NCBI GenBank assembly: GCA_038106605.1
Contig: JAYOEF010000003.1
Location: forward strand, 1-63,526
DNA from: Alphaproteobacteria bacterium
Lineage (GTDB): Bacteria > Pseudomonadota > Alphaproteobacteria > MPNO01 > UBA830
Direction: 5' to 3'
Length of the DNA: 63,526 nucleotides
Within the stretch, counting starts at the first letter, position 1. Each line of letters opens with the position of its first letter. Below are positions 886 to 38,491 of this stretch, piece by piece. The position numbers and the translations under genes are program-made. The notes below the pieces were generated by a model, which did not search any database, was not told the origin of the DNA, and worked only from the letters and a program-made list of their open reading frames with translations.

Positions 886-1760
886 GGGCGAGAATGGCGC
901 GGAAAAGGTCGAGCTGGCCCTGCGTGGTCGCGTCCCAGCTGAAGCGTTCGGCGTAGAGGCGCGTGGCGTTGCGATCCGGCAGGTTCGCGAACAGCTCCTT
1001 CGCGGCCTCCGCGATGGCGATGCCCGAGCGCTCGCGCATTAGCCGCCCGGCCTCGGGCGCGGCAACCACCTCGGGCGTGCCCCAGACGTTCGATGCGACC
1101 ACGGGCGTGCCGCAGGCCATCGCCTCCAGCAGCACGTTCGCCCAGCCCTCTCTGCTCGAGGCCAGCACCAGGATGTCGGCGGCGCCGTAGAGATCGGGGA
1201 GCTCCTCGTGCGGGCGGCGGCCGAGGAACTGCACGCGGTCCGTCACACCCAACCGGTCGGCGAGCGCACGGAGCTTCGCCTCTTCCGGCCCCTCGCCCGC
1301 GATCAGCAGCGTGTGGCCCGGCAGGTGCGGCAGCGCATCGATGACGAGGTCGTGCGCCTTCCGCTCGATCAGGTGCCCGACGGAAATCAGCGTCGGTCCG
1401 TCGAGGCCGTAGCGCGCGCGAAGCGCGGCGCGGTCCTGCATGCGGAACATCTTCAGATCGACGCCGTTCCGGAGAACCGTGACGCGGTCCGCTTCGACGC
1501 CGAGCTCGACCATCTCGTCCTTGAGCGCCTGGCAGACGGTGATCATTCCGTCGGCGCGAGCGGCGGTCCACAGGATCTGGCGGCGGGGGAGCGCATGGCG
1601 CGGGATCAGGTTGATTTCTGTGCCGCGCGCGGTGACCGTGAACGGCTTCCCAAGCCGGCGCGCGATCAGCGCCGCGGCGACGCCGTCGGGATAGAAATAG
1701 TGCGCGTCGATCAGGTCGAAATCGTAGCCCGAGGCCAGCAGGCGGCGGACGGCAGGCCCC
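863..1760 (-). pseudogene. GT4/GT1-type glycosyltransferase remnant lacking its N-terminus (EPS-locus GT)
   Basis: The translation starts making sense only at AVRRLLASGYDFDLIDAHYFYPDG (mid N-domain of a GT-B enzyme). It then runs through a complete C-domain (RVTVLRNGVDLKMF ... EGWANVLLEAMACGTPVVAS). The upstream part of the 517-aa ORF is Arg/Pro-rich out-of-frame read-through. Confidence 0.7.
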
Positions 1761-2253
1761 AGGTGTCGCGCGCGATGCGCAGCAGGTTGAGCGAGGGCAC
1801 GACGACATGCTTCGTGCGCGCGAGCGCGACGCGGCGCAGCAGCACGCGGCGTCTGAGCTGGCGGGTCGCCTCCTCCGGCCCGAAGCCGCTTTCCATATGA
1901 AGATGCGGGATGCCGGCGAACAGGCGGTTCACCAGCGCCCACTCGATCGAGCCCCAGTTGTAGGTGACGAGCATGTCGGGGGCGAGGCCGCGCAGGTGGC
2001 CGCGGATGCGGCAGAACGTGTCGGCGCTGCGGCCCTTGGCGAGGTTGAGCGGCAGGCGGGTGACGTCGGCGGCCGCATAGACCCGTTCGATGCAGTCGAA
2101 CCGGTCGTTCATCGCCGCGATGGTGTGGCGGTAGCGGTCGGGGAAACGATTGATCACCGACGAGATGCGGAGCTGGACGCCGCCGACGTCGAAGCCCGGG
2201 AAGACATGGAGGATGTGCCGCTTCGCGCCGGTCATCGGCGACACTCCCGGCAA
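1711..2253 (-). pseudogene. N-terminal domain remnant of a second glycosyltransferase (PEP-CTERM/EpsH1-associated sugar-transferase-like)
   Basis: KRHILHVFPGFDVGGVQLRISSVINRFPDRYRH ... MLVTYNWGSIEWAL ... HVVVPSLNLLRIARDTWGLP resembles the first ~170 aa of a GT4. The frame then breaks at about 1750 and runs out-of-frame into the next GT remnant. Confidence 0.65.
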
Positions 2254-2342
2254 GTCCGAGCGCCGCGCGCCGAAAGGGGAGGCAGCGGAGCGCGAATATG
2301 ATATGTGTCGGGACCTTGGCGTACCCGAGACGAAACGGCGAC

Positions 2343-3356
2343 ATGCTCGATCCGGCAGACTGGAGCCCGGCCGACACCGGCACGGGCGAACCGCTCCTCC
2401 TGGTGACGGTGGACACGGAGGAAGAGTTCCCCTGGTCCGAGCCGGTTTCGCGCGCCTACACCTCGACGCGAGCGATCACGGCGCAGGCGCGCGCGCACCG
2501 CATCTTCGAGAAATACGGCATCCGCCCGACCTACGTGATCGACTTTCCGGTCGCCAGTCAGGACACTGGCTACGGGCCGCTCAAGGAGCTCTACGACGGC
2601 GGGCTGTGCAGCATCGGCACCCACCTGCACCCGTGGGTGAACCCGCCGTTCGACGAGGAGGTGTGCAACCGCAACTCCTATCCCGGAAACCTGCCGCGCG
2701 ACATGGAACGCGCCAAGCTCGACCGGCTGACCCGCGAGGTCGAGGACCGCTTCGGCTTCCGCCCGACGATCTACAAGGCCGGCCGCTACGGCGTCGGCGC
2801 CAACACGGCGGCGATCCTGGCCGAGCTCGGATATGCCATCGACACCAGCGTGGTGCCGCGCACGGATTTCCGCATCGACGAGGGGCCGGACTTCCGCCAC
2901 TGCGGCGGCAAGCCCTACTGGTTCGGAAAGGGGGAAGCGAAGATTCTCGAGATCCCGCTCTCGGTCGACTTCACCGGCGTTCTCGCGGGGCTCGGCTGGG
3001 ACGGGTGGAACCGCGTGAATTCGCCCCTGGGCCGGCGTCTGAAACTGACGGCGCTCAGCTCGCGGATGCGCATCCTCGACCGCGTGATCCTGACGCCCGA
3101 GGGCATCACCCACACGGAACACCGGCGCCTGACGCGGGCTATGCTGAGGTCCGGACATCGCGTTTTTAGTTTTACTTATCACAGCCCCTCGCTGGAGCCG
3201 GGATGCACGCCCTATGTCTCCAGCGACCGGGACCTCGGCGTGTTCCTCGACCGCCTCGACCGCTATTTCAACTGGTTCGTCAACGAACTCGGCGGGCGGC
3301 CCGCCACGCCGTACGAGATCCTCGACCTCGCACGCGGACAGGTCACCCGCCCCTGA
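2343..3356 (+). CDS. polysaccharide deacetylase-like protein (WalW-like)
   Basis: LLVTVDTEEEFPW and GTHLHPW motifs in a ~337-aa protein, measured from the ATG at 2343. It is divergent from the GT remnants. Confidence 0.65.
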   Translation: MLDPADWSPADTGTGEPLLLVTVDTEEEFPWSEPVSRAYTSTRAITAQARAHRIFEKYGIRPTYVIDFPVASQDTGYGPLKELYDGGLCSIGTHLHPWVNPPFDEEVCNRNSYPGNLPRDMERAKLDRLTREVEDRFGFRPTIYKAGRYGVGANTAAILAELGYAIDTSVVPRTDFRIDEGPDFRHCGGKPYWFGKGEAKILEIPLSVDFTGVLAGLGWDGWNRVNSPLGRRLKLTALSSRMRILDRVILTPEGITHTEHRRLTRAMLRSGHRVFSFTYHSPSLEPGCTPYVSSDRDLGVFLDRLDRYFNWFVNELGGRPATPYEILDLARGQVTRP

Positions 3357-3359
3357 GCG

Positions 3360-6170
3360 TCAGCCCCCGAGTTGATTGAGCAGCGCTTTCGCCTTATCAA
3401 CCGCCTCGAACTTCACGCCCGACTTGAGAAGGTCGCCGACCACCCTCTTCGCTTCGGCGTTCTGGCCCGTCTTCTGCAACGCGACCGCATAGTGGTACTG
3501 GATGTCGCCCTGCTTGGGCGCGAGGTCGTGCGCCTCCTTCAGGAGCGCGGCACCCCGCTTCGCATCGACGCCCATGTCGACGAGGATCCAGCCGAGCGTA
3601 TCGATCACCGCTGCCGACTTGGGCGCGCTCTTGTGCGCGCGCTCGGCGTAGTCGACCGCCCGCTTTTCGCCCTTCTGCTGGTAGAGCCATGCGAGGTTGT
3701 TGAGGAGAACGGGGTTCTCCTTCTCGTTGGCGAGCAGCTTTTCGGACTCGCGGATCGCTTCGTCGTTCTTGCCGGCGGAGAGATAGGCGCTCGCCAGCAC
3801 ATGACGGACGCTGCGGTCGTCCTTCTTGTCGACCCAGGTCTGCAGCTCCTTCATCGCCGCGTCGGCCTTGCCCATCTGGCGCTGCGCGTTGAAGCGCCGG
3901 ATCGCGAGGGTTCCGATGTCGGACTTCGCCATCGCCTTGCCGTAGACGTCGGCCGCTTCAGCGTACTTCTGCTGGCGCATCAGCACGTCGCCGGTCAGCA
4001 GCTCGCCGTAGTGCGAGTCGGGCTGCGACTTGCCGAGATCGGCGGCGAGCCTGAGCGCCTCGTCGTACTTCTTCTCGGCCGATTCCAGCTCGATCAGCGC
4101 GATCTTCGCCGGCAGGTACTTGTCGTCGATCGCGATCGCGTCGGTGAGCGTGCGCCGCGCCGAATCCGGATCCTTGGCGGCGATCTGCGCACCGGCCACG
4201 AGACCGAGCACGGCCGCGGATTTCGGATTGAGCGCCGCGAGCCGCTTGTAGGTCTGGACCGCCGCGATCGGATCTCCCGCCGCCGCCTGCGACCGGCCGA
4301 GCGCCTCAAGGACGCGCGGATTGTCGGGCTGGGCGTTGGAGAGGTCGCGAGCAACCGAAACCGCCTTCTGGAACTCACGGTTCCGGCCGTAGAACTGGAT
4401 CAGCCGGAGGCTCGGCGTCAGCGACGTCGGGTTCGCTTCAGCCGCGCGCTTGAGCCACGAGACGACCTCGTCGCCCTTCTCCTCCTGCGCGGCGATGTTG
4501 GCGAGCGCGAGCATCGCGCCTATGTGCTTCGAATCCTTCTCCAGGATCGTCTGGTATTCCTTGCGCGCTTCGTCGACCCGCTTCTCCTGCAGGTCGAGCT
4601 GGGCGAGGTTCATCCGCGCGGGATGGAAGTCCGGCTTCGCCTTGAGCGCCGCCTCGAAGGTGGCGCGCGCCGCCTTCGTGTCGCCCTTGCCGAGCTGCGC
4701 CGCACCGATGAGGTTGTCGGCGAGCGGGTTGTCGGGCGAAGTTTCCTTGAGCTTTTTCGCCGCCTCCAGGGCGCCGTCGAAATCGCGCTTCCGCAGCTTC
4801 ACGAGCGCCAGCAGCACGGTGGCCTGGCGGGCCTCGGGATCGAGGTTGACAGCGGATTCGAGCTGGCCGACGGCAGCGTCCGCCTCACCCAGCGCGAGGT
4901 TGCCGAGCGCCTGCTGCATCTTGATGTAGGCGACATCGGGCGCGGCCTCGGAGGCGCGGCTGAAATAGGCCGTGCCCTCGTTGAACTTGCCGGTCTGCAT
5001 GTAGGCGCTGCCGAGGAGCGTCAGGAGCTGGGCGTCCTTGGTGTCTTCCTTGACCAGCTGTTCGAGGATCTTGATCGCGCGCTCGGGCTCGCGCTTGCGG
5101 ACCAGCGTGGCGCCGAGAAGCTTCCGCGCCCGCTCGTTCGACGGCACCGCCGCGACGTAGCGCTCGAGGTTTGCAACCGCCTGCTCGTACTGGTTCAGCG
5201 CGTAGTTGATGGCGCCGCGCAGGAACACGCTCGGCATGTGATTGTCGAGGAAGTTGCCCGCCTGCTGCAGGGTTTCCTGCGCCGCGACGTAATCCTTCTT
5301 CTTCGACAGCGTGAGCGCCTGCAGGTAGGAGGCGAGCGGATGCTTGGGCACGCGCCGGAACACGGCATCCAGGTCGCCCTGCGCCTCGGCGTCCTTGCCG
5401 AGGTCAATCAGCGACGCGGCGCGGCCGAGAAGGGCAAGGAGGTTGCCCTCGTTGACCTTGATCGCGCGCTCGAACTGCTGGATCGCGCCCGGCAGGTCCT
5501 TGTTGAGGCGGCGGAGCTCGCCCTTGAGCACGAGGGCTTCCGGCGAATCGGGGTTGCGCTTGAGCGCGTCGTCGATCTCCGCTTCGCCTTCGGCGACCTT
5601 GCCCTGGCTGACGAACGACTGGGCGAGACCGATCTTGGCGCGCACATCATCGGGCTTCAGCTTGTCCGCCTCGCGCAGCATCTCGCGCGCCTTGTCGAAC
5701 TCGCGGAGACCGAGCAGCGCCTGGCCGCGCACGATCAGCGCATCGGGCCGCAGCTCCGGCTCGGTGACGTCGGCCGGCAGCTCGTCGATCGCTTCCTTGT
5801 TCTTGCCCTGGAGGAGATAGGCGCGGGCGAGCAGAATCTTGATCCGCGTGTCCTTGGCGCCGCGCCGGATGGCGGCCTGGAATTCCTTTTCCGCCGACGG
5901 ACCGTTGCCGACGCGGAGGTAGATCTCGCCGAGGAGCTGGCGCGCGGCGACGTTGCCGGGATCGGCCTGCAGCGCGTTCTTCAGCTGGATGACCGCGGCG
6001 TTGCCGTCGCCCTTCTTGATGAAGGCGCGGGCTTCGCGGAGGTATTTCTCCGACTTCTCCTTGTCGACCGACGCGGCGTGCGCGGGTACCGGCGCCGCCA
6101 GGTGCAGCCACGCGAGACCGAGAGCGATCGCGGTGCCTTTCATGAGCCTGCCGGCCATAATCTGGTTCAT
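3360..6170 (-). CDS. prsT: PEP-CTERM system TPR-repeat lipoprotein
   Basis: 936 aa with an N-terminal signal peptide and wall-to-wall TPR repeats. It sits immediately downstream of prsK-prsR, the canonical arrangement. Confidence 0.85.
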   Translation of the reverse strand: MNQIMAGRLMKGTAIALGLAWLHLAAPVPAHAASVDKEKSEKYLREARAFIKKGDGNAAVIQLKNALQADPGNVAARQLLGEIYLRVGNGPSAEKEFQAAIRRGAKDTRIKILLARAYLLQGKNKEAIDELPADVTEPELRPDALIVRGQALLGLREFDKAREMLREADKLKPDDVRAKIGLAQSFVSQGKVAEGEAEIDDALKRNPDSPEALVLKGELRRLNKDLPGAIQQFERAIKVNEGNLLALLGRAASLIDLGKDAEAQGDLDAVFRRVPKHPLASYLQALTLSKKKDYVAAQETLQQAGNFLDNHMPSVFLRGAINYALNQYEQAVANLERYVAAVPSNERARKLLGATLVRKREPERAIKILEQLVKEDTKDAQLLTLLGSAYMQTGKFNEGTAYFSRASEAAPDVAYIKMQQALGNLALGEADAAVGQLESAVNLDPEARQATVLLALVKLRKRDFDGALEAAKKLKETSPDNPLADNLIGAAQLGKGDTKAARATFEAALKAKPDFHPARMNLAQLDLQEKRVDEARKEYQTILEKDSKHIGAMLALANIAAQEEKGDEVVSWLKRAAEANPTSLTPSLRLIQFYGRNREFQKAVSVARDLSNAQPDNPRVLEALGRSQAAAGDPIAAVQTYKRLAALNPKSAAVLGLVAGAQIAAKDPDSARRTLTDAIAIDDKYLPAKIALIELESAEKKYDEALRLAADLGKSQPDSHYGELLTGDVLMRQQKYAEAADVYGKAMAKSDIGTLAIRRFNAQRQMGKADAAMKELQTWVDKKDDRSVRHVLASAYLSAGKNDEAIRESEKLLANEKENPVLLNNLAWLYQQKGEKRAVDYAERAHKSAPKSAAVIDTLGWILVDMGVDAKRGAALLKEAHDLAPKQGDIQYHYAVALQKTGQNAEAKRVVGDLLKSGVKFEAVDKAKALLNQLGG

Positions 6171-6249
6171 TCAGGCCTCTCCCTCTGTTCCCGGTCTTGC
6201 CCGGACCGGGCGACTGTAGTGCGGTGTGCCTGTCGATAGCGCCTACAGG

Positions 6250-7608
6250 TTAATCCACCTTGAATCCATGCTGCTTCATCAGGTCGTAAAGCGTCGGGCG
6301 GCTGATGCCGAGCAGTTTGGCGGCCTGGGTGATGTTTCCCTCGGCCCTTGAAAGAGCACGTGGGATCTCCCGTCTTTCCGCCTCTTCCCGCGCCTTCGCG
6401 AGATTGAGGATCTCGGCTTCCCCGTCGACGTCCTCGAGATCGAGGTCTTCGGGCGTGATCCGGTTGCCCTCGGCCATTATGAGCGCGCGTTTCACGCGGT
6501 TTTCCAGCTCGCGCACGTTGCCCGGCCATTCGTAGCCCGAGATCGACGCCAGAGCCTCGCGCGTGTAGCCGCGCACCGACTTGCCCTGCTCCTCGGCGAA
6601 TTTCTGCAGGAACGACTGGGCGAGGAGCTCGGCATCGCCGATACGCTCGCGCAGCGGCGGAATGTTGATCACCATTTCGCTGAGCCGGTAGTAGAGGTCC
6701 CCGCGGAACGTTCCGGCGGCGATCATCTCGTCGAGCTTCTGGTTGGTCGCGCAGATCACGCGGACGTCGACCGCGATCGCCTGGCGGCCGCCGATGCGCT
6801 CGAACGTGCGCTCCTGCAGGAAGCGAAGCAGTTTCGCCTGGATCGCCGACGGCATGTCGCCGACCTCGTCGAGGAAGAGCGTTCCGGAATCGGCAAGCTC
6901 GACCTTGCCCTTCTGCTGGCGGACGGCGCCGGTGAACGAGCCCTTCTCGTGGCCGAACAGCTCGCTTTCGAGAAGATTCTCGGGGATCGCCGCGCAGTTG
7001 ATCGCGGCGAACGGCTTGCCGGCGCGCGGGCTGAGGTCGTGGATCGCCCGCGCGAACACTTCCTTGCCGGTGCCGCTCTCGCCGAGCAGCATCGTGGTGA
7101 CGTTGGTCGGCGCGACCTTCTCCACCAGACGGCAGATCTTGAGCATCTCCGGATCCGCGCAGATCACGCCGTTGAGCGCGACGTTGTCGCTGCGCTGGGC
7201 GAGGCGCCGGTTCTCCTGCTCGAGGTCGTAGAGGTGGAGGGCCCGCTGGATGATGTGGCCGAGTTCCTCGGACACGATCGGCTTGCGGTAGAAATCGTAG
7301 GCCCCGAGCGCGATCGCCTTGAGCGCGTTCTCGTGGTCCTCGTTGCCGGTCACCACGATGACCTTGGTCTCGGGCGCGAGCTTGAGAATGGCCTCGACGG
7401 TCGCGAGACCCTCGGTGGCGCCGTCCGGATCGGGCGGCAGGCCGAGATCGACGGTGACCACCGCCGGCGTCTCCGACCGGAACTGGGCGACGGCCTCGTC
7501 GCGGTCTCCGGCGACGGAGACGTCGTAGTCGTCGAAGCTCCAGCGCAGCTGGCGCTGGATGCCGGTATCGTCGTCGACGATCAGGAGTTTCCGTTTGCTC
7601 TCGCTCAT
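6250..7608 (-). CDS. prsR: PEP-CTERM-box sigma-54-dependent response regulator
   Basis: REC domain (LLIVDDD ... DLGLPPD), AAA+ sigma-54 interaction domain (GESGTGKE, ESELFGHEKGSFTGA) and a C-terminal Fis-type HTH. There is a 4-nt overlap with prsK. Confidence 0.9.
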   Translation of the reverse strand: MSESKRKLLIVDDDTGIQRQLRWSFDDYDVSVAGDRDEAVAQFRSETPAVVTVDLGLPPDPDGATEGLATVEAILKLAPETKVIVVTGNEDHENALKAIALGAYDFYRKPIVSEELGHIIQRALHLYDLEQENRRLAQRSDNVALNGVICADPEMLKICRLVEKVAPTNVTTMLLGESGTGKEVFARAIHDLSPRAGKPFAAINCAAIPENLLESELFGHEKGSFTGAVRQQKGKVELADSGTLFLDEVGDMPSAIQAKLLRFLQERTFERIGGRQAIAVDVRVICATNQKLDEMIAAGTFRGDLYYRLSEMVINIPPLRERIGDAELLAQSFLQKFAEEQGKSVRGYTREALASISGYEWPGNVRELENRVKRALIMAEGNRITPEDLDLEDVDGEAEILNLAKAREEAERREIPRALSRAEGNITQAAKLLGISRPTLYDLMKQHGFKVD

Positions 7609-8915
7609 TTCACCGCTGCGTCGCTCGTCGCTTTTTCCGTCATCCCGATCGCCGGAAGACGGATCGTCACCGTCGTCCCGACCCCCGGCTCGCTCTGCAC
7701 TTCCAGCCGCCCGCCCTGCTCGCGGACGTATTCGCGGCTCTCGAAGGCGCCGATCCCGTATCCGCCGCCCTTCGAGCTGCGGAACGGCTTGAACAGCTCG
7801 TCGCGGACGAAATCCGCGTCCATGCCGCTGCCGTTGTCCTCGACTTCGATGACCGCCTCCCGTCCGCGCGAGACGAGCCGCACCTGCACCGTGCCGTCGT
7901 CGCCAAGCGCGTCGAGCGCGTTGTCGATCACGTGCGCCATGACCGCGCCCAGCCGTTCCTCGTCGATCACGACCGCGATCCCGTCCGCGGCGCTCGCGAA
8001 GTGCAAGCGCCCGTTCGACCGGGCGTTCCGTTCGACAATCTTCCGAAGAAAACGCGAAAGGTCGATAGCCGCGGAGGCCGCCGCTTTCTTTCCGCCCTCG
8101 TGCAATCGTACCAGATGATTGTTCATTTTTTCCACCGATTCACTGACGGTGCGAAGCATATCTCCCTGGAACTCGGGGTTGTTCTTGTGCTTCTCGGCAT
8201 TCTTGACCATGAGCGACAGCTGGCTCACCAGGTTCTTGATGTCGTGGAGCACGAAGGCGAAACGCTTGTTGAACTCGTCGAACTGGCGGGCCTCGACGAG
8301 GGCGCGGGCGGACTCCTGCTCGGCGAGGTAGCTCGCCGTCTGGCGCCCAACCGTCTTCAGGAGGTCGTAGTCCTCCCAGTTGAGCTCGCGCAGCACGCGC
8401 GGCTGTCCAAGCATCAGGATGCCGAGAAGCTGGTCGTGGTGCAGCAGCGGCACCACCAGCCATGCGCGCGGCGGGTCGCGCGTATCGCGCAGCCAGTCCG
8501 GGATGACGAGATCCTCGTAGACGTGGGGTTTGTCCCGGTACTCGTCGAGATTGATGACCCACTGCTGTTCCTCGAGGAACTGGACGAAACGCGGATCGGC
8601 GGTCTGGGTGCCCTCGACGACCCGGCTGTTCCAGGACGTCAGCAGGTCGAACTCGCCGTTCTGGCGGTACATCCAGAGCGTCCCCTCGGGGCTCTCGACG
8701 ATGTCGGCGAGGCCCTTGACCACGCGTTTGGAGAGCGCGCGCCCCGACGCGACGGAGGAAATGGTGCCGATCAGCCGCAGCCATTCGTGGCGGTAGTCGT
8801 AGCGGTAGGTGAAGAAGTACTTGTTGATGATGACCTTGAGCCACGCACGGAAGCTGCCCGAGAACAGCGTGAGCACGAGGAGGATCAGCGCCGCGAACAG
8901 GAACACGACCTGCAT
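7605..8915 (-). pseudogene. prsK: PrsK-type histidine kinase lacking its multi-TM sensor region
   Basis: From the internal ATG (MQVVFLFAALILLVLTLF) one last TM helix remains, followed by the YDYRHEWLRL linker, a GAF-like region, HisKA (FAFVLHDIKN) and HATPase (DNGSGMD, GGYGIGA). ORF sequence upstream of 8915 belongs to a different gene read out of frame. Confidence 0.75.
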
Positions 8916-9154
8916 CGCCGGGCCCCACTCGCCACCTCGTGCCCGTCGTCGGCGATGCAGCGGATCAGCTGCGGATAGCGCTCCGCCACCCAGCCGAGCG
9001 TAAAGAAGGTGGCCTTGGCACCCGCTTCCGCGAAGAGGTCGAGCACGCGCCCGGTGTTCTGCTCGACGCGGCACGGCAGCGAATCCCAGTCGTCGCGCGA
9101 GATGGTCTTCGCGAACGCCGAGACCTGGAAATAGTCCTCGACGTCGACCGACAT
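8885..9154 (-). pseudogene. N-terminal fragment of an XrtA-locus polysaccharide deacetylase
   Basis: MSVDVEDYFQVSAFAKTISRDDWDSLPCRVEQNTGRVLDLFAEAGAKATFFTLGWVAERYPQLIRCIADDGHEVAS then switches to nonsense (GARRCRSCSCSRR*). The expected SHG..H continuation is missing. Confidence 0.75.
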
Positions 9155-9209
9155 CGCGTTGACGACGCTACCCGCCACGGCGGGTTTCGTTTTGGATGCC
9201 GCGGTCACG

Positions 9210-10145
9210 TCAGCGGGCGCCCCGGAGCGTGGCGACGCGCCTCTGCAGGTCGGCCAGGGATTCGCGCATGCCGGGCGCGAGGTCGTCGAGCAGCAGGTTG
9301 CCGCCGGGCGGCGGCACCGGCCGGGCGGACGCACCGGCTTCCTCGGCGATCTCGCGAGCGACGTCCTGGACGACATGCTCGTCGATGACGTGCGTGTCCT
9401 CGAGCGATCCGTAGAGCAGCAGGCGGCCGCACAGGGCGTTGATGCGCCGCGGTACGCCCTCGGTCACCGTGTGGATGTAGTCGAACGCGCTCTCGGTGAA
9501 TTCGGGATCGCCGGTCCAGCCGACGAGCTGCAGGCGGTGCTCGATGTAGCCGCGCGTCTCGTCGGGGCCGAGCGGCTCGAGATGGCAGGTCGCGATCACG
9601 CGCTGGCGGATCTGCTCCATCTCCGGGCGCGCTAGCTTCTCGCGGAACTCCGGCTGGCCGAGCAGGAAGCACTGCACCAGCGGCCGGTTGTCCATCTGGA
9701 AGTTGGACAGCATGCGCAGTTCTTCGATCGCCTCGAACGGCATGTTCTGCACTTCGTCGATGACGAGGACTACGTGCTTGCCCTCGACCCGGCGCGCGAT
9801 CAGGAAATTCTCGATGTCCTTGAGGATCGAGGCCTTGTCGCGCTGCTCGACCGACAGGCCGAAGGCCCGCACAACCATGCGCAGCGTGTCGTCCGAGCCG
9901 AGCTGGGTAGTGACGATGTTCGCCGAGACGAACTTGCTCTGGTCGATCTGGCTCAGCAGGTGCCCGACGATCGTCGTCTTGCCCGCGCCGACATGGCCGG
10001 TGATGACGATGAAGCCGTCGCGCTCGTTGAGGCCGTACGTCAGGTATGCCATCGCCTTCTTGTGCCCCAGGCTCGGAAAGTAGAACCGGTGGTCGGGGCT
10101 AAGCTGAAATGGGCGCCCCCGAAGCTTGTAGTGCGACGCGTACAT
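9210..10145 (-). CDS. XrtA/PEP-CTERM system-associated AAA ATPase (ExeA-like)
   Basis: MYASHYKLRGRPFQLSPDHRFYF start, Walker A GHVGAGKT and Walker B VVLVIDEVQ. It lies downstream of the locus beta-barrel gene. Confidence 0.85.
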   Translation of the reverse strand: MYASHYKLRGRPFQLSPDHRFYFPSLGHKKAMAYLTYGLNERDGFIVITGHVGAGKTTIVGHLLSQIDQSKFVSANIVTTQLGSDDTLRMVVRAFGLSVEQRDKASILKDIENFLIARRVEGKHVVLVIDEVQNMPFEAIEELRMLSNFQMDNRPLVQCFLLGQPEFREKLARPEMEQIRQRVIATCHLEPLGPDETRGYIEHRLQLVGWTGDPEFTESAFDYIHTVTEGVPRRINALCGRLLLYGSLEDTHVIDEHVVQDVAREIAEEAGASARPVPPPGGNLLLDDLAPGMRESLADLQRRVATLRGAR

Positions 10146-36240: not shown

Positions 36241-36263
36241 CGGACGCTTCGCGTCGCATTTCG

Positions 36264-36297
36264 AAGGGGCGCCGAAAGGCGCCCCTTTCCGTTTCTA
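36264..36297 (+). terminator. Rho-independent terminator after the SDR gene
   Basis: AAGGGGCGCC-GAAA-GGCGCCCCTT hairpin followed by TCCGTTTCT. Confidence 0.75.
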
Positions 36298-36361
36298 CCG
36301 TCGGCCGCATTGAAACGAGGCAGCGGCCGGATGGATTCGCGCCGACGTCTGTTTACAGGTC

Positions 36362-37834
36362 ATGGCGAACACCGACGCACACCGCGCATTGGCGCGAGAC
36401 GAACACCGCGCGCTCGCGCGATACGAAGACGCGATCCGGCCGCACCGTGCGGCGTTCGGCGACCGGCATGCGCTGCGGATGCTGGGCGGCGCGGGACAGT
36501 ATCCCGACGTCGTGCACCTGTTCCTCGTCCGTTTCGCAGCATCGGGCATCGCGATGACGCAACCGGTGGAAGGCTGGATCCGGCGCGCGGGCGAACGCTG
36601 CGGCGCGCTCGGCTTCGCCGAGCTCAGCGACGCCCTCGTCGCCCATGCCGCCGAGGAGGCGGGACACAACAAGCTGATGGCCGCCGACCTCCACGCGCTG
36701 TGCCGGCGCTGGAATGCAACCCATCGCCGGCAGCTCGATCCGGTCGCGCTCGCCTGCGGCGGCCGCTCCGGTGCCGTGCGGCGCTACGAAGAGATTCACG
36801 AGAACATCCTCGCGGGCGGCGAGCCCTACGCCCAGATCGCCGTGGAGTACGAGATCGAGAGCCTGTCGGTCCGCTACGGCGCGGAGCTGCTCGCCACGGG
36901 GGGACTGTCTGGCAGTCCGGCCGGCGGCGAGGAGCTCTCGTTCCTGCGGACCCATGTCGCTGCCGATGCAGGCCACAGCGCCTTCAACCGGCTGCAGCTC
37001 GGCCGTTTCCTCGCCTGCCATCCGGACACATTGCCTGCACTCGTCCGCGCCGGCGCGGCGGCGCTCGACGCCTACGGCGCGTTCCTCGACGACTGCCTCG
37101 CCGCGGCGCTCCATTCGGAGCCGGCGGAGGAAAGCCTTGCGCTCGACTGCGCGCTCCATCCGCCCCCTGGCCCGCACGACGGGCCGCAGCATGGGGTGGC
37201 GTCCCTGCCCTGCTGGCTGGCCGGTGCCCGGGCGCTGCGCACCCGCGTGCTGTACGACAACGGCCGGCGCCCGGTCTTTGCGCCACGCGGCGGCAGCTTC
37301 GGCGATGCCGATCCAGCCGATCTCGCATGCTGGCACTTCGTGCTCGCCGACGACGAACTCCCGGTCGGGACGATCCGCGTGCTGCCGGCGCCGGACGGCG
37401 CCGCCTGCAGCCTGTCGATGACGGACCGGACGTTCGGTACAACGGACGTGGAAGCGGCGCTCGCCCGCGAGGGGCTCCGGCGCAGCGACTGCGTCGAGGC
37501 GAGCCGCCTCGTGCTCGATCCCGGATACCGTCGTGGCGCGACGGTGCGCCGCCTGCTCGCCGGCGCCTGGGCGTTCGCCGCCGAATCCGGCGCGCGCGGA
37601 ATCCTCGCTGCCGCCGGCACCTGCGACCGCCAGGACCGCATGCTCGCCCTGTTCGGCGCGCGGCCGCTCGCCGGAGTGCCCAAACAGCGTTCGGAGCGCT
37701 TCGACGACGACATGCGCCTCATGCTGTTTCCGGTCGACCCGGCCGCGCCGCCGGATTATCCCGAGATCGCGGTCATGCAGGGGCTCGTCGCCACGCGTTT
37801 CGCCCACGTGGGACGGCGCGACGCCGCGGCATAG
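36362..37834 (+). CDS. fusion protein: haem-oxygenase-like (di-iron, Haem_oxygenase_2/CADD/PqqC-like) N-domain plus LuxI/FeeM/GNAT-type N-acyltransferase C-domain
   Basis: The N-terminal half carries helical E/H ligand-type motifs (AAEEAGHNKL, EYEIESLS, THVAADAGHSAF). The C-terminal half carries ALRTRVLYDNG ... FGDADPADLACWHFVLADDELPVGTIRVLP ... EASRLVLDPGYRRG. It is a single uninterrupted 490-aa ORF. Confidence 0.6.
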   Translation: MANTDAHRALARDEHRALARYEDAIRPHRAAFGDRHALRMLGGAGQYPDVVHLFLVRFAASGIAMTQPVEGWIRRAGERCGALGFAELSDALVAHAAEEAGHNKLMAADLHALCRRWNATHRRQLDPVALACGGRSGAVRRYEEIHENILAGGEPYAQIAVEYEIESLSVRYGAELLATGGLSGSPAGGEELSFLRTHVAADAGHSAFNRLQLGRFLACHPDTLPALVRAGAAALDAYGAFLDDCLAAALHSEPAEESLALDCALHPPPGPHDGPQHGVASLPCWLAGARALRTRVLYDNGRRPVFAPRGGSFGDADPADLACWHFVLADDELPVGTIRVLPAPDGAACSLSMTDRTFGTTDVEAALAREGLRRSDCVEASRLVLDPGYRRGATVRRLLAGAWAFAAESGARGILAAAGTCDRQDRMLALFGARPLAGVPKQRSERFDDDMRLMLFPVDPAAPPDYPEIAVMQGLVATRFAHVGRRDAAA

Positions 37835-37852: not shown

Positions 37853-38491
37853 TCAGTGGACGACGCGGAGCGGCGGACGGCCATCCGGCGGCGATACCGG
37901 CCGGCGCATCAGCGGAAACAGGATGAGCCCGGCGAAGAAGCCGCCCGCATGCGCCTCCCAGCTGATGGCGCCGCCGCTGAGGAGCGCATAGCCGAGATTG
38001 ACGATCATCATCACCAGCACGTACTGGCCGAAATCCTGCAGCGTCGGCTTCGAGTGCCCGTCGCGGCCGCGCATCAGCACGTAGGCGCCGGCGCCGAGAA
38101 GCCCGAACACGGCACCCGACGCGCCCACGAGGAACGCGCTCTCGCCCCAGTTCACGAACGCGTGGGTCAACGCGCCGATCGTGCCGGTGACCGTGAAGAA
38201 CGCGATGTAGCGCCGGTTTCCGAGATGCGGCCAGATCTGGGGTGACAGTACCACCACCCAAGTCGCGTTGGCGACAAGATGGAGCCAGCCGCCGTGGACG
38301 AACACCGACGTCACGGCCCCGTAGAGCCAGACCGGGTCGAAGGTGCCGTCGCGGAACACGTCGAAAGCGAGCAAGTAGATCAGCCACGCATCGAACTCGG
38401 GCGGCAGGATACTGCGCACGCCCTGGACGATGGCGAGGAAGACGAGAAGCCGGACAGCGGCCGGCGGGAGCGAGATGGAATTATCGTTCAT
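37853..38491 (-). CDS. rhomboid family intramembrane serine protease
   Basis: HGGWLHLVAN, catalytic GASGAVFGLLGA and WEAHAGGFFAG motifs. Confidence 0.85.
   Translation of the reverse strand: MNDNSISLPPAAVRLLVFLAIVQGVRSILPPEFDAWLIYLLAFDVFRDGTFDPVWLYGAVTSVFVHGGWLHLVANATWVVVLSPQIWPHLGNRRYIAFFTVTGTIGALTHAFVNWGESAFLVGASGAVFGLLGAGAYVLMRGRDGHSKPTLQDFGQYVLVMMIVNLGYALLSGGAISWEAHAGGFFAGLILFPLMRRPVSPPDGRPPLRVVH

Follow-up and report, generated by a model that had tools for sequence, protein, structure and literature searches.

A predicted fusion of a haem-oxygenase-like di-metal oxidase with a LuxI-related N-acyltransferase in an alphaproteobacterial genome, and the recurring pairing of the two domains across bacterial phyla

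The DNA analysed here, 63,526 nucleotides of contig JAYOEF010000003.1 (assembly GCA_038106605.1) from an Alphaproteobacteria bacterium, will be referred to as the window. At positions 36362-37834 it contains a gene whose single open reading frame (ORF) joins a predicted haem-oxygenase-like di-metal oxidase (HDO) domain to a GNAT-fold domain related to the synthases of N-acyl homoserine lactones (AHLs) and N-acyl amino acids. Strong comparative evidence argues that HDO and acyltransferase act on the same metabolite, since across five phyla the two are found fused in both orders or as translationally coupled genes. An earlier interpretation made from the letters alone (the sequence-only reading) had suggested that the two halves serve one metabolite, and that idea is strongly reinforced by the recurrent fusion and adjacency found across phyla.

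The fusion gene and its counterparts in other bacteria

The ORF listing bears out the single reading frame called earlier, and every motif then quoted was located in its translation: AAEEAGH (residues 96-102), EYEIES (162-167), HVAADAGH (198-205), ALRTRV (291-296), FGDADPAD (313-320), HFVLADDELPVGTIRVLP (325-342) and EASRLVLDP (379-387). The ORF is not a merger of two adjacent genes by frameshift. An assembly or sequencing artefact of that kind, to which the split versions with 4-bp overlaps seen in other phyla and three seemingly frameshifted homologues might be taken to point, is scarcely conceivable: the uninterrupted ORF recurs in independent metagenomes and metagenome-assembled genomes (MAGs), with 11 full-length homologues at 36-92% identity, and single-ORF orthologues were found in more than 20 independent assemblies, with identities down to 36%. 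These single ORFs, of 472-565 residues, come from Acidobacteriota (including Silvibacterium bohemicum S15), Rhodoblastus sp. 17X3, a betaproteobacterial MAG and UBA7314. The linker between the halves keeps the reading frame, shows partial conservation and evolves under purifying selection, and is the most variable part of the homologue alignment. In the comparison with the orthologue in L001, the closest DNA homologue, the ratio of nonsynonymous to synonymous substitution rates (dN/dS) is 0.24 over the whole gene; taken separately, the HDO half has a value of 0.27, the linker 0.37 and the GNAT half 0.20, and both halves are under purifying selection. The three exceptions mentioned above (P0010, P0024 and P0029) have a good HDO half followed by unrelated low-complexity sequence, and are probably frameshifted or pseudogenes.

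An exhaustive profile search yielded 837 relatives, 277 of them at E <= 1e-30, and the clade comprises at least 277 clusters at 50% identity. Most of its members are HDO proteins of about 245 residues, seemingly stand-alone, and full-length fusions make up only about 12 clusters; the source names of cluster members are uninformative ('hypothetical protein' or blank). When domain architecture and gene order were surveyed at 80 genomic loci, a partner was found fused to the HDO, in either order, or adjacent to it on the same strand, at about 72 of them. This count takes in window-type GNATs, true FeeM-type synthases, the cyanobacterial GNAT and, in Myxococcota, a PilZ-domain protein. The iterative profile for the type-A partner had absorbed HDO sequence from fused ORFs, and the ORFs of about 250 residues scored as 'type A, fused' were discounted as HDO itself. 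According to hhalign, partner types A, B and C are interrelated (probabilities of 93.5% and 85.6%), the window-type and FeeM-type partners, at 93.5%, being distant relatives, and the PilZ protein, its C-terminal region included, is not detectably related to the other types. Neighbourhood clustering found no third gene common to the phyla beside the pair.

The forms taken by the pairing are diverse. In Egibacteraceae, Bryobacteraceae, Myxococcales, Microbispora and the metagenomic locus L006, the HDO gene is followed by a window-type GNAT gene with a 4-bp overlap, and adjacent or longer-overlapping pairs occur in an alphaproteobacterium (L037), Sphaerisporangium (L071) and Streptomyces (L087). 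The reversed order exists as a single ORF in P0018 (GNAT, then HDO), P0033 (a FeeM match of 112 bits, then HDO) and P0091 (FeeM at 94 bits, then HDO), and in an Actinomycetota MAG (L036) a FeeM-type gene (60 bits) overlaps the HDO gene by 4 bp. In Nostoc and other cyanobacteria, the cluster runs aromatic-amino-acid lyase, AMP-dependent ligase, GNAT, HDO, MAPEG and O-methyltransferase, a composition that points to an N-acyl product with an aryl (cinnamoyl or coumaroyl) group; AMP-dependent ligases are found with the pair both in L006 and in Nostoc. The Nostoc desertorum cluster lies at 3773-10553 of L038, with similar ones in L034, L039 and L041-L043, and in L043 the HDO gene is present in two tandem copies.

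A partner found in Myxococcota is a PilZ-domain protein of about 760 residues. Its gene precedes or overlaps that of the HDO, or is fused to it, and this linkage suggests control by cyclic di-GMP (c-di-GMP). Between PilZ and HDO only one weak Acetyltransf_1 match (18 bits) was seen. Two such Myxococcus loci are L061 (5609-8636) and L069 (5611-8639), and the metagenomic proteins P0035, P0077 and P0090 are PilZ-HDO fusions of 811-844 residues. Identity of the Myxococcus partner with the published protein PixB was considered and not established: the M. xanthus ORF in L069 is at odds with the published landmark residues R121 and R331, and the resemblance is one of general architecture only (PilZ plus a possible GNAT).

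The two domains and their known relatives

In the full-length AlphaFold model (predicted local distance difference test, pLDDT, 84; predicted TM-score, pTM, 0.83) residues 1-252 are all helical, and a model of this domain alone, built on 33 family sequences, reached a pLDDT of 94 and a pTM of 0.92. When the domain model was compared with solved structures by Foldseek, the matches were, in order of E-value, Sden_3740 (3dde), CADD, a TenA homologue, UndA, AetD, PolF and BesC, and PqqC was also among them; the target-normalised TM-score was 0.80 against CADD (root-mean-square deviation 3.0 A) and 0.68 against UndA. The family sequence profile found 3dde (E = 1e-3) and CADD (E = 0.09) in the PDB with the ligand motifs aligned. 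Eight residues, E99, H102, E162, E164, E166, H198, D202 and H205, are invariant in all 33 family members, which share 32-44% identity, and in our reading of the HMMER alignment E166 pairs with the CADD ligand E142. A set of three histidines and three carboxylates on the core helices is the criterion by which HDOs are recognised (PMC13108848). Both that ligand pattern and the seven-helix fold are seen in the alignment and the model, and residues 1-252 are predicted to be an HDO at the superfamily level, an assignment that was accepted on account of the fold and the invariant pattern in spite of a sub-threshold score with the Pfam model. The fold proposed in the sequence-only reading is thereby upheld, within a clade that is distant from every characterised HDO. 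Searches of PDB sequences with the whole protein, by single-sequence phmmer or with a full-length profile, returned nothing useful, whereas the domain-specific profiles succeeded.

The C-terminal half, with its GNAT domain at residues 284-483, passes the cut-off of PF13444 (Acetyltransf_5) with 31-33 bits against 22.4, and its best Foldseek matches are the AHL synthases BjaI, LasI, TofI, MesI and RpaI, followed by FeeM (E = 2e-3). A profile built from the GNAT halves of 19 fused and split relatives matched, in the PDB, BjaI (7e-10), TofI (1e-6), RpaI (1e-4), MesI (1e-3) and LasI (7e-3), and left FeeM (2G0B) unmatched. When these GNAT halves were scanned singly, PF13444 was matched by 18 of the 19, FeeM by 13 and, weakly, Autoind_synth by 4 (best E = 5e-6). 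On the window protein, PF00765 (Autoind_synth) gave no match at E <= 1, the model of the PEP-CTERM-associated acyltransferase, TIGR03694, gave 13 bits against a cut-off of 111.95, and that of the ornithine-lipid N-acyltransferase OlsB (NF052555) 12.8 bits against 320; the general GNAT families Acetyltransf_1 and Acetyltransf_7 were weakly matched too. A charged signature (R293, D315, R339 and E379-x-S-R382) lines up with its equivalents in BjaI and TofI, E379-A-S-R382 being aligned to E-W-S-R of the former and E-L-S-R of the latter. The assignment to an autoinducer-synthase-like GNAT of the Acetyltransf_5 kind is thus confirmed, and the description that suits the half best is that of an acyl-chain-transferring GNAT in the LuxI/N-acyl amino acid synthase (NAS) group, and not that of a strict LuxI, FeeM or PEP-CTERM-associated member. 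Of the narrower label 'LuxI/FeeM-type', given to it earlier, the FeeM part holds at the superfamily level only; the profile matches LuxI-type synthases and not FeeM. The pTM of the full-length model suggests that the two domains are packed in a defined way, and pLDDT falls below 50 in the linker at residues 255-257 and 274-279.

The comparison with known systems shows how each half departs from its relatives. The LuxI-type AHL synthases (the CoA-dependent BjaI, RpaI and MesI, PDB 5W8C, 6WN0 and 6WNS, as well as TofI and LasI) have the fold of the GNAT half in common with it and share its charged residues, but the window protein lacks their Autoind_synth match and has R303 in place of a tryptophan of BjaI. 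No LuxR-type gene was noticed near the fusion, although no systematic search for one was made, and we know of no HDO domain on a known LuxI enzyme. FeeM-type synthases belong to the same GNAT sub-group, and the HDO clade also has true FeeM-type genes among its partners; nevertheless, the window protein fails the FeeM model. The TIGR03694 acyltransferase is a distant relative within that sub-group, of which the window protein is not a member. On the oxidase side, the fatty-acid oxidative decarboxylase UndA and CADD, a self-sacrificing p-aminobenzoate synthase, have the same seven-helix bundle and three-histidine/three-carboxylate site, with the pattern ExxH...E...HxxxDxxH, but they share 11-16% identity with the window HDO and neither has a fused or paired acyltransferase. 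The position of the sacrificial Lys152 of CADD corresponds, in our reading of the alignment, to Leu176. The sole characterised multidomain HDO is SznF, in which an HDO is tethered covalently to another catalytic domain that acts on the same metabolite (PMC13108848); in SznF, however, the partner is a cupin and not a GNAT, the ligand set comprises three histidines and four carboxylates, and the protein lies outside the top 50 structural matches. The same logic of an N-acyl synthase combined with an O2-dependent enzyme that acts on the amino-acid part is found in the oxidative decarboxylases FeeG, CndG and HyeB (PMC11959600) and in the nitroreductase-type desaturase TyzC (PMC12479983), but these belong to unrelated families, and none of them is an HDO or is fused to its synthase.

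Proposed function and alternative explanations

Drawing on the sequence, the models and analogy, the window protein is proposed to be a two-step cytoplasmic enzyme in which N-acylation would come first and O2-dependent oxidation after it, giving an oxidised N-acyl amide; we would give this proposal an even chance. Both halves look catalytically competent. With acyl-CoA or acyl-ACP as the donor, the GNAT half would acylate the amino group of an amino acid or of a related amine, a step suggested by its similarity to CoA-dependent AHL synthases and by the AMP-dependent ligases present at some loci. The HDO half would bind two metals (Fe/Fe or Fe/Mn) through E99, H102, E166 (possibly E162), H198, D202 and H205, activate O2 and oxidise the same metabolite as its partner, and the carboxylate of the N-acyl product could coordinate the metals in the manner of lauric acid in UndA. 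This would lead either to a hydroxylation or to an oxidative decarboxylation or desaturation that yields an enamide, and the oxidised N-acyl amide might act as a signal, a surfactant or a membrane-active lipid. Metal binding, acyl donor, amine acceptor, order of the steps, type of oxidation and biological role are, in this scheme, what we infer. Acylation first is favoured because the enzymes known to tailor N-acyl tyrosines do so once the acyl group is in place, as documented for FeeG, CndG and HyeB (PMC11959600) and for TyzC (PMC12479983), and because an N-acyl amino acid would, like the substrate of UndA, combine a carboxylate able to bind metal with a hydrophobic tail. The functionally assigned HDOs with the nearest folds are, according to Foldseek, CADD and the carboxylate-binding UndA.

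Several observations weigh against this proposal. The order of the steps is not readable from the sequence, and no characterised member of the HDO clade was found in the literature. The nearest solved relatives, at about 16% identity, are 3dde, whose function is unknown, and the self-sacrificing CADD; moreover, PF14518 (Haem_oxygenas_2) gives the window protein only 16.3 bits against a cut-off of 28.9, although another clade member, P0077, clears it with 37.5 bits. In the other half, the FeeM model PF21926 gives 16.3-18.4 bits against a cut-off of 27, and R303, conserved in the family, sits opposite a tryptophan of BjaI (in the H-W of 'EERHWETL'). This tryptophan we take to be the conserved residue of the S-adenosylmethionine (SAM) pocket of LuxI enzymes; in that case an amine other than SAM could be the substrate, and a classical AHL would be doubtful as the product. 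Finally, the genomic contexts vary by lineage and hint at other chemistries, with extracytoplasmic function (ECF) sigma factors and TonB-type receptors in Acidobacteria and a cytochrome P450 and an aldoxime-dehydratase-like protein in Microbispora.

These contexts would fit better with the opposite order, in which a free amino acid or amine would first be oxidised by the HDO half, by N-oxygenation on the model of SznF, HrmI and RohS or in some other way, and then acylated by the GNAT half. An acylated hydroxylamine, for instance, would be an N-acyl hydroxamate, a lipophilic metal chelator produced by the siderophore logic of IucD and IucB. Among the characterised HDOs, N-oxygenases of free amino acids form a major class (PMC13108848). 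Consistent with such a route are the ECF sigma/anti-sigma pair (L028) or TonB-type receptor beside the acidobacterial genes, the presence of ECF sigma factors near the gene in 12 loci, the MacB-type ABC exporter directly 5' of it in Rhodoblastus and the Microbispora operon, whose make-up would allow for N-hydroxy or oxime intermediates. However, the top 50 structural matches, where UndA, AetD, PolF and BesC appear, include no N-oxygenase HDO, the neighbourhood of the gene in the window has no iron-uptake genes, and the acidobacterial loci that share the TonB/ECF context are closely related and thus not independent. TonB-type receptors and ECF sigma factors are, besides, very abundant in Acidobacteria. 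The partners are of the LuxI, FeeM or PF13444 type, which is presumably not that of siderophore acyltransferases. On balance, oxidation before acylation was judged rather unlikely; it is the main rival.

Two other explanations concern the nature of one half. The GNAT domain might be a short-chain, acetyl-CoA-dependent N-acetyltransferase that detoxifies or caps the HDO product, or that modifies a protein; Acetyltransf_1 and Acetyltransf_7 are weakly matched, several small acetyltransferases are among the Foldseek and profile matches, and the acetyltransferase domain of M. xanthus PixB (PilZ-PilZ-GNAT) works in motility signalling, with its substrate unknown (PMC8316039). This was regarded as improbable, given that the top matches in both sequence and structure are acyl-chain-transferring AHL synthases and FeeM, that the GNAT halves so consistently match PF13444 and, in good part, FeeM, that some partners are unambiguous FeeM-type synthases (60-112 bits), and that AMP-dependent ligases stand with the pair in L006 and Nostoc. 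A non-redox N-terminal domain, that is, a metal-free haem-oxygenase-like fold of the TenA or PqqC sort or a ligand-binding or regulatory module, would agree with the TenA homologues and PqqC found among the structural matches and with the low PF14518 score, but it appears very improbable in view of the six canonical metal ligands and extra carboxylates that are invariant in the 33 sequences and aligned to the CADD and 3dde motifs, conservation of precisely that set being what marks an HDO (PMC13108848).

A broader proposal, on the whole family, is held with slightly less than even confidence: the HDO clade and the LuxI/NAS-type acyltransferases would form a widespread and so far unrecognised two-component module, present as coupled genes or as a fusion of either order in Acidobacteriota, Alpha- and Betaproteobacteria, Actinomycetota, Cyanobacteria and Myxococcota, which would make a new class of O2-dependent oxidised N-acyl amides. 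The Myxococcota version with PilZ would be gated by c-di-GMP, and the window gene would represent the minimal, one-protein form. Candidate products of the module would be enamide, hydroxylated or hydroxamate lipo-amino acids and non-canonical AHL-like signals.

The earlier suspicion that this architecture is undescribed has held up. A 2026 review of HDOs does not mention GNATs, acyltransferases or a fusion (PMC13108848), NCBIfam has no model for the HDO clade or its partners, and full-text literature searches combining HDO with GNAT, N-acyltransferase, LuxI or acyltransferase returned nothing relevant. Both superfamilies and the combination of an N-acyl synthase with an oxidase were already known; the interest lies in how large and phyletically broad the uncharacterised module is, and in the ease with which a single gene would allow it to be tested. 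Only about 12 of more than 10,000 HDO enzymes have a known reaction (PMC13108848), and each newly solved one has brought unusual oxidative chemistry. N-acyl amino acids and AHLs are important bacterial signals, surfactants and host-receptor ligands, and here a whole HDO clade is locked to acyltransferases of the kind that make such molecules. The window gene, a single 1.5-kb ORF with no required neighbours, offers a convenient entry point, and culturable carriers exist in Silvibacterium bohemicum, Rhodoblastus sp., Microbispora triticiradicis, Nostoc and Myxococcus. Should the product be a signal or a chelator, it would define a new O2-dependent branch of acyl-amide signalling or metal acquisition in soil and marine bacteria.

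Genomic context and further features of the window

The window comes from a lineage of uncultured marine alphaproteobacteria, with MAGs labelled Rhodospirillaceae, UBA830 and UBA7314, and the nearest genomes are about 76% identical to it at the flanking GMC oxidoreductase. The syntenic order is GMC oxidoreductase, periplasmic binding protein, optional ATP-binding cassette (ABC) transporter genes, a short-chain dehydrogenase/reductase (SDR) of 251 residues, the fusion gene, a convergent rhomboid gene, PNPOx and two Mem_trans genes. In the related MAGs L095, L097, L098 and L100 the fusion gene is present between SDR and rhomboid, whereas in L099, L101 and L123 the SDR gene is directly followed by the rhomboid gene, a clean absence. 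In the same genome pairs, the fusion protein shows 40-55% identity and the products of the flanking genes 61-87%. The fusion gene is a self-contained, fast-evolving accessory unit, subject to a presence/absence polymorphism of one gene. The SDR gene adjoins it in all close relatives that carry the fusion, and was considered as a pathway partner; it was rejected, as the SDR is 78-89% identical where the fusion is 40-55% and it stays in relatives without the fusion. The SDR is thus not an obligate partner.

The convergent rhomboid gene reported downstream was confirmed at 37853-38491 on the reverse strand, its stop codon lying 18 bp from that of the fusion gene. Upstream, a terminator had been placed at 36264-36297. 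A strong hairpin is indeed found there, with a fold z score of -2.67 and none of 200 shuffled sequences folding equally well, but its T tail is imperfect, and strict consensus scans for terminators and promoters made no calls, the hairpin included. Lying between the SDR and fusion genes, it is probably the terminator of the SDR gene. The GC content of the window is 65-71%. Near its 5' end the fusion gene carries a tandem duplication that gives DAHRALAR/DEHRALAR, that is, eight added residues in helix 1, which are missing from the closest homologues (P0001-P0004). The coordinates of these and other features are collected in Table 1.

Table 1. Features of the fusion gene and of the PEP-CTERM-related cluster (positions are those of the window; residues are those of the fusion protein)
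Feature	Positions	Strand	Basis or remarks
HDO-GNAT fusion gene	36362..37834	+	ATG start; 490 residues plus stop codon; ORF listing, homologues, dN/dS
Predicted HDO domain, residues 1-252	36362..37117	+	AlphaFold, Foldseek, family profile
24-bp tandem duplication, 5' end of fusion gene	36374..36427	+	Tandem Repeats Finder: period 24, 2.2 copies
E99-A-G-H102, putative first carboxylate/His ligand pair (ExxH)	36656..36667	+	Invariant (n = 33); aligns to HEEAGH of 3dde
E162-Y-E164-I-E166, putative carboxylate ligand helix	36845..36859	+	All three Glu invariant (n = 33)
H198-x3-D202-x2-H205, putative HxxxDxxH ligand motif	36953..36976	+	Invariant; aligns to H-x3-D-x2-H of CADD and 3dde
Interdomain linker, residues 253-283	37118..37210	+	Partly low confidence; dN/dS 0.37
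Predicted GNAT-fold N-acyltransferase, Acetyltransf_5/LuxI/FeeM group, residues 284-490	37211..37831	+	PF13444, Foldseek, GNAT-half profile
D315-A-D317-P-A-D320, acidic cluster of GNAT domain	37304..37321	+	D315 invariant in 19/19; aligns to conserved Asp of BjaI
E379-A-S381-R382, resembling E-x-S-R of LuxI-type synthases	37496..37507	+	E-x-[S/G]-R kept in window-type partners
GC-rich hairpin, 11-bp stem, GAAA loop, T-rich tail	36263..36299 (hairpin ~36263-36289)	+	RNA folding of intergenic region
PrsT	3363-6170	-	762 bits, passes cut-off
PrsR	6253-7608	-	696 bits, passes cut-off
PrsK	7608-9074	-	Matches model positions 255-679 only (C-terminal part)
PEP-CTERM ATPase	9213-10145	-	370 bits, passes cut-off
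TIGR03088-type PEP-CTERM glycosyltransferase fragment	within 1714-10145	-	180 residues

N-acyl amino acid synthases are said to be associated with PEP-CTERM/exosortase systems, a connection reportedly made by Craig, Cherry and Brady in 2011, and the sequence-only reading had invoked it together with a remnant of such a locus some 20 kb away. The cluster is real, an XrtA/PEP-CTERM regulatory set at 1714-10145 on the reverse strand that may be partly decayed, but it lies 26-33 kb from the fusion gene and shows no sign of co-regulation with it. As an explanation for the fusion the link was rejected, the window protein falling so far below the TIGR03694 cut-off. Because of this failure and of the distance, the association is not transferable to the fusion: it is at most a property of the genome, and no evidence about the gene.

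Elsewhere the surroundings of the gene differ. Its acidobacterial neighbours include PAP2/haloperoxidase-like and ferritin-like proteins, TonB-type receptors and ECF sigma and anti-sigma factors, a context that resembles cell-surface signalling or uptake. The fusion gene there stands directly after an ECF sigma/anti-sigma (zf-HC2) pair or after the gene for a TonB-type outer-membrane receptor of about 1,190 residues, at loci L028 (6500-9482, Silvibacterium bohemicum S15), L015, L017, L019, L020, L023 and L052. In Rhodoblastus, ABC and MacB-type exporter genes lie directly upstream. In Microbispora triticiradicis (L074, 7932-11821), HDO, GNAT, cytochrome P450 and a haem-containing aldoxime-type dehydratase form a tight operon with short overlaps, an arrangement that may reflect a chemistry of N-hydroxy, oxime or nitrile compounds in this lineage. 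Finally, a gene of about 262 codons without a Pfam match is found directly 3' of the HDO-GNAT fusion in a Pyrinomonadaceae locus (L014, 9588-10373) and also 3' of the reversed FeeM-HDO fusion in a deltaproteobacterial MAG (L046, 8771-9562), and it could encode a further accessory component.

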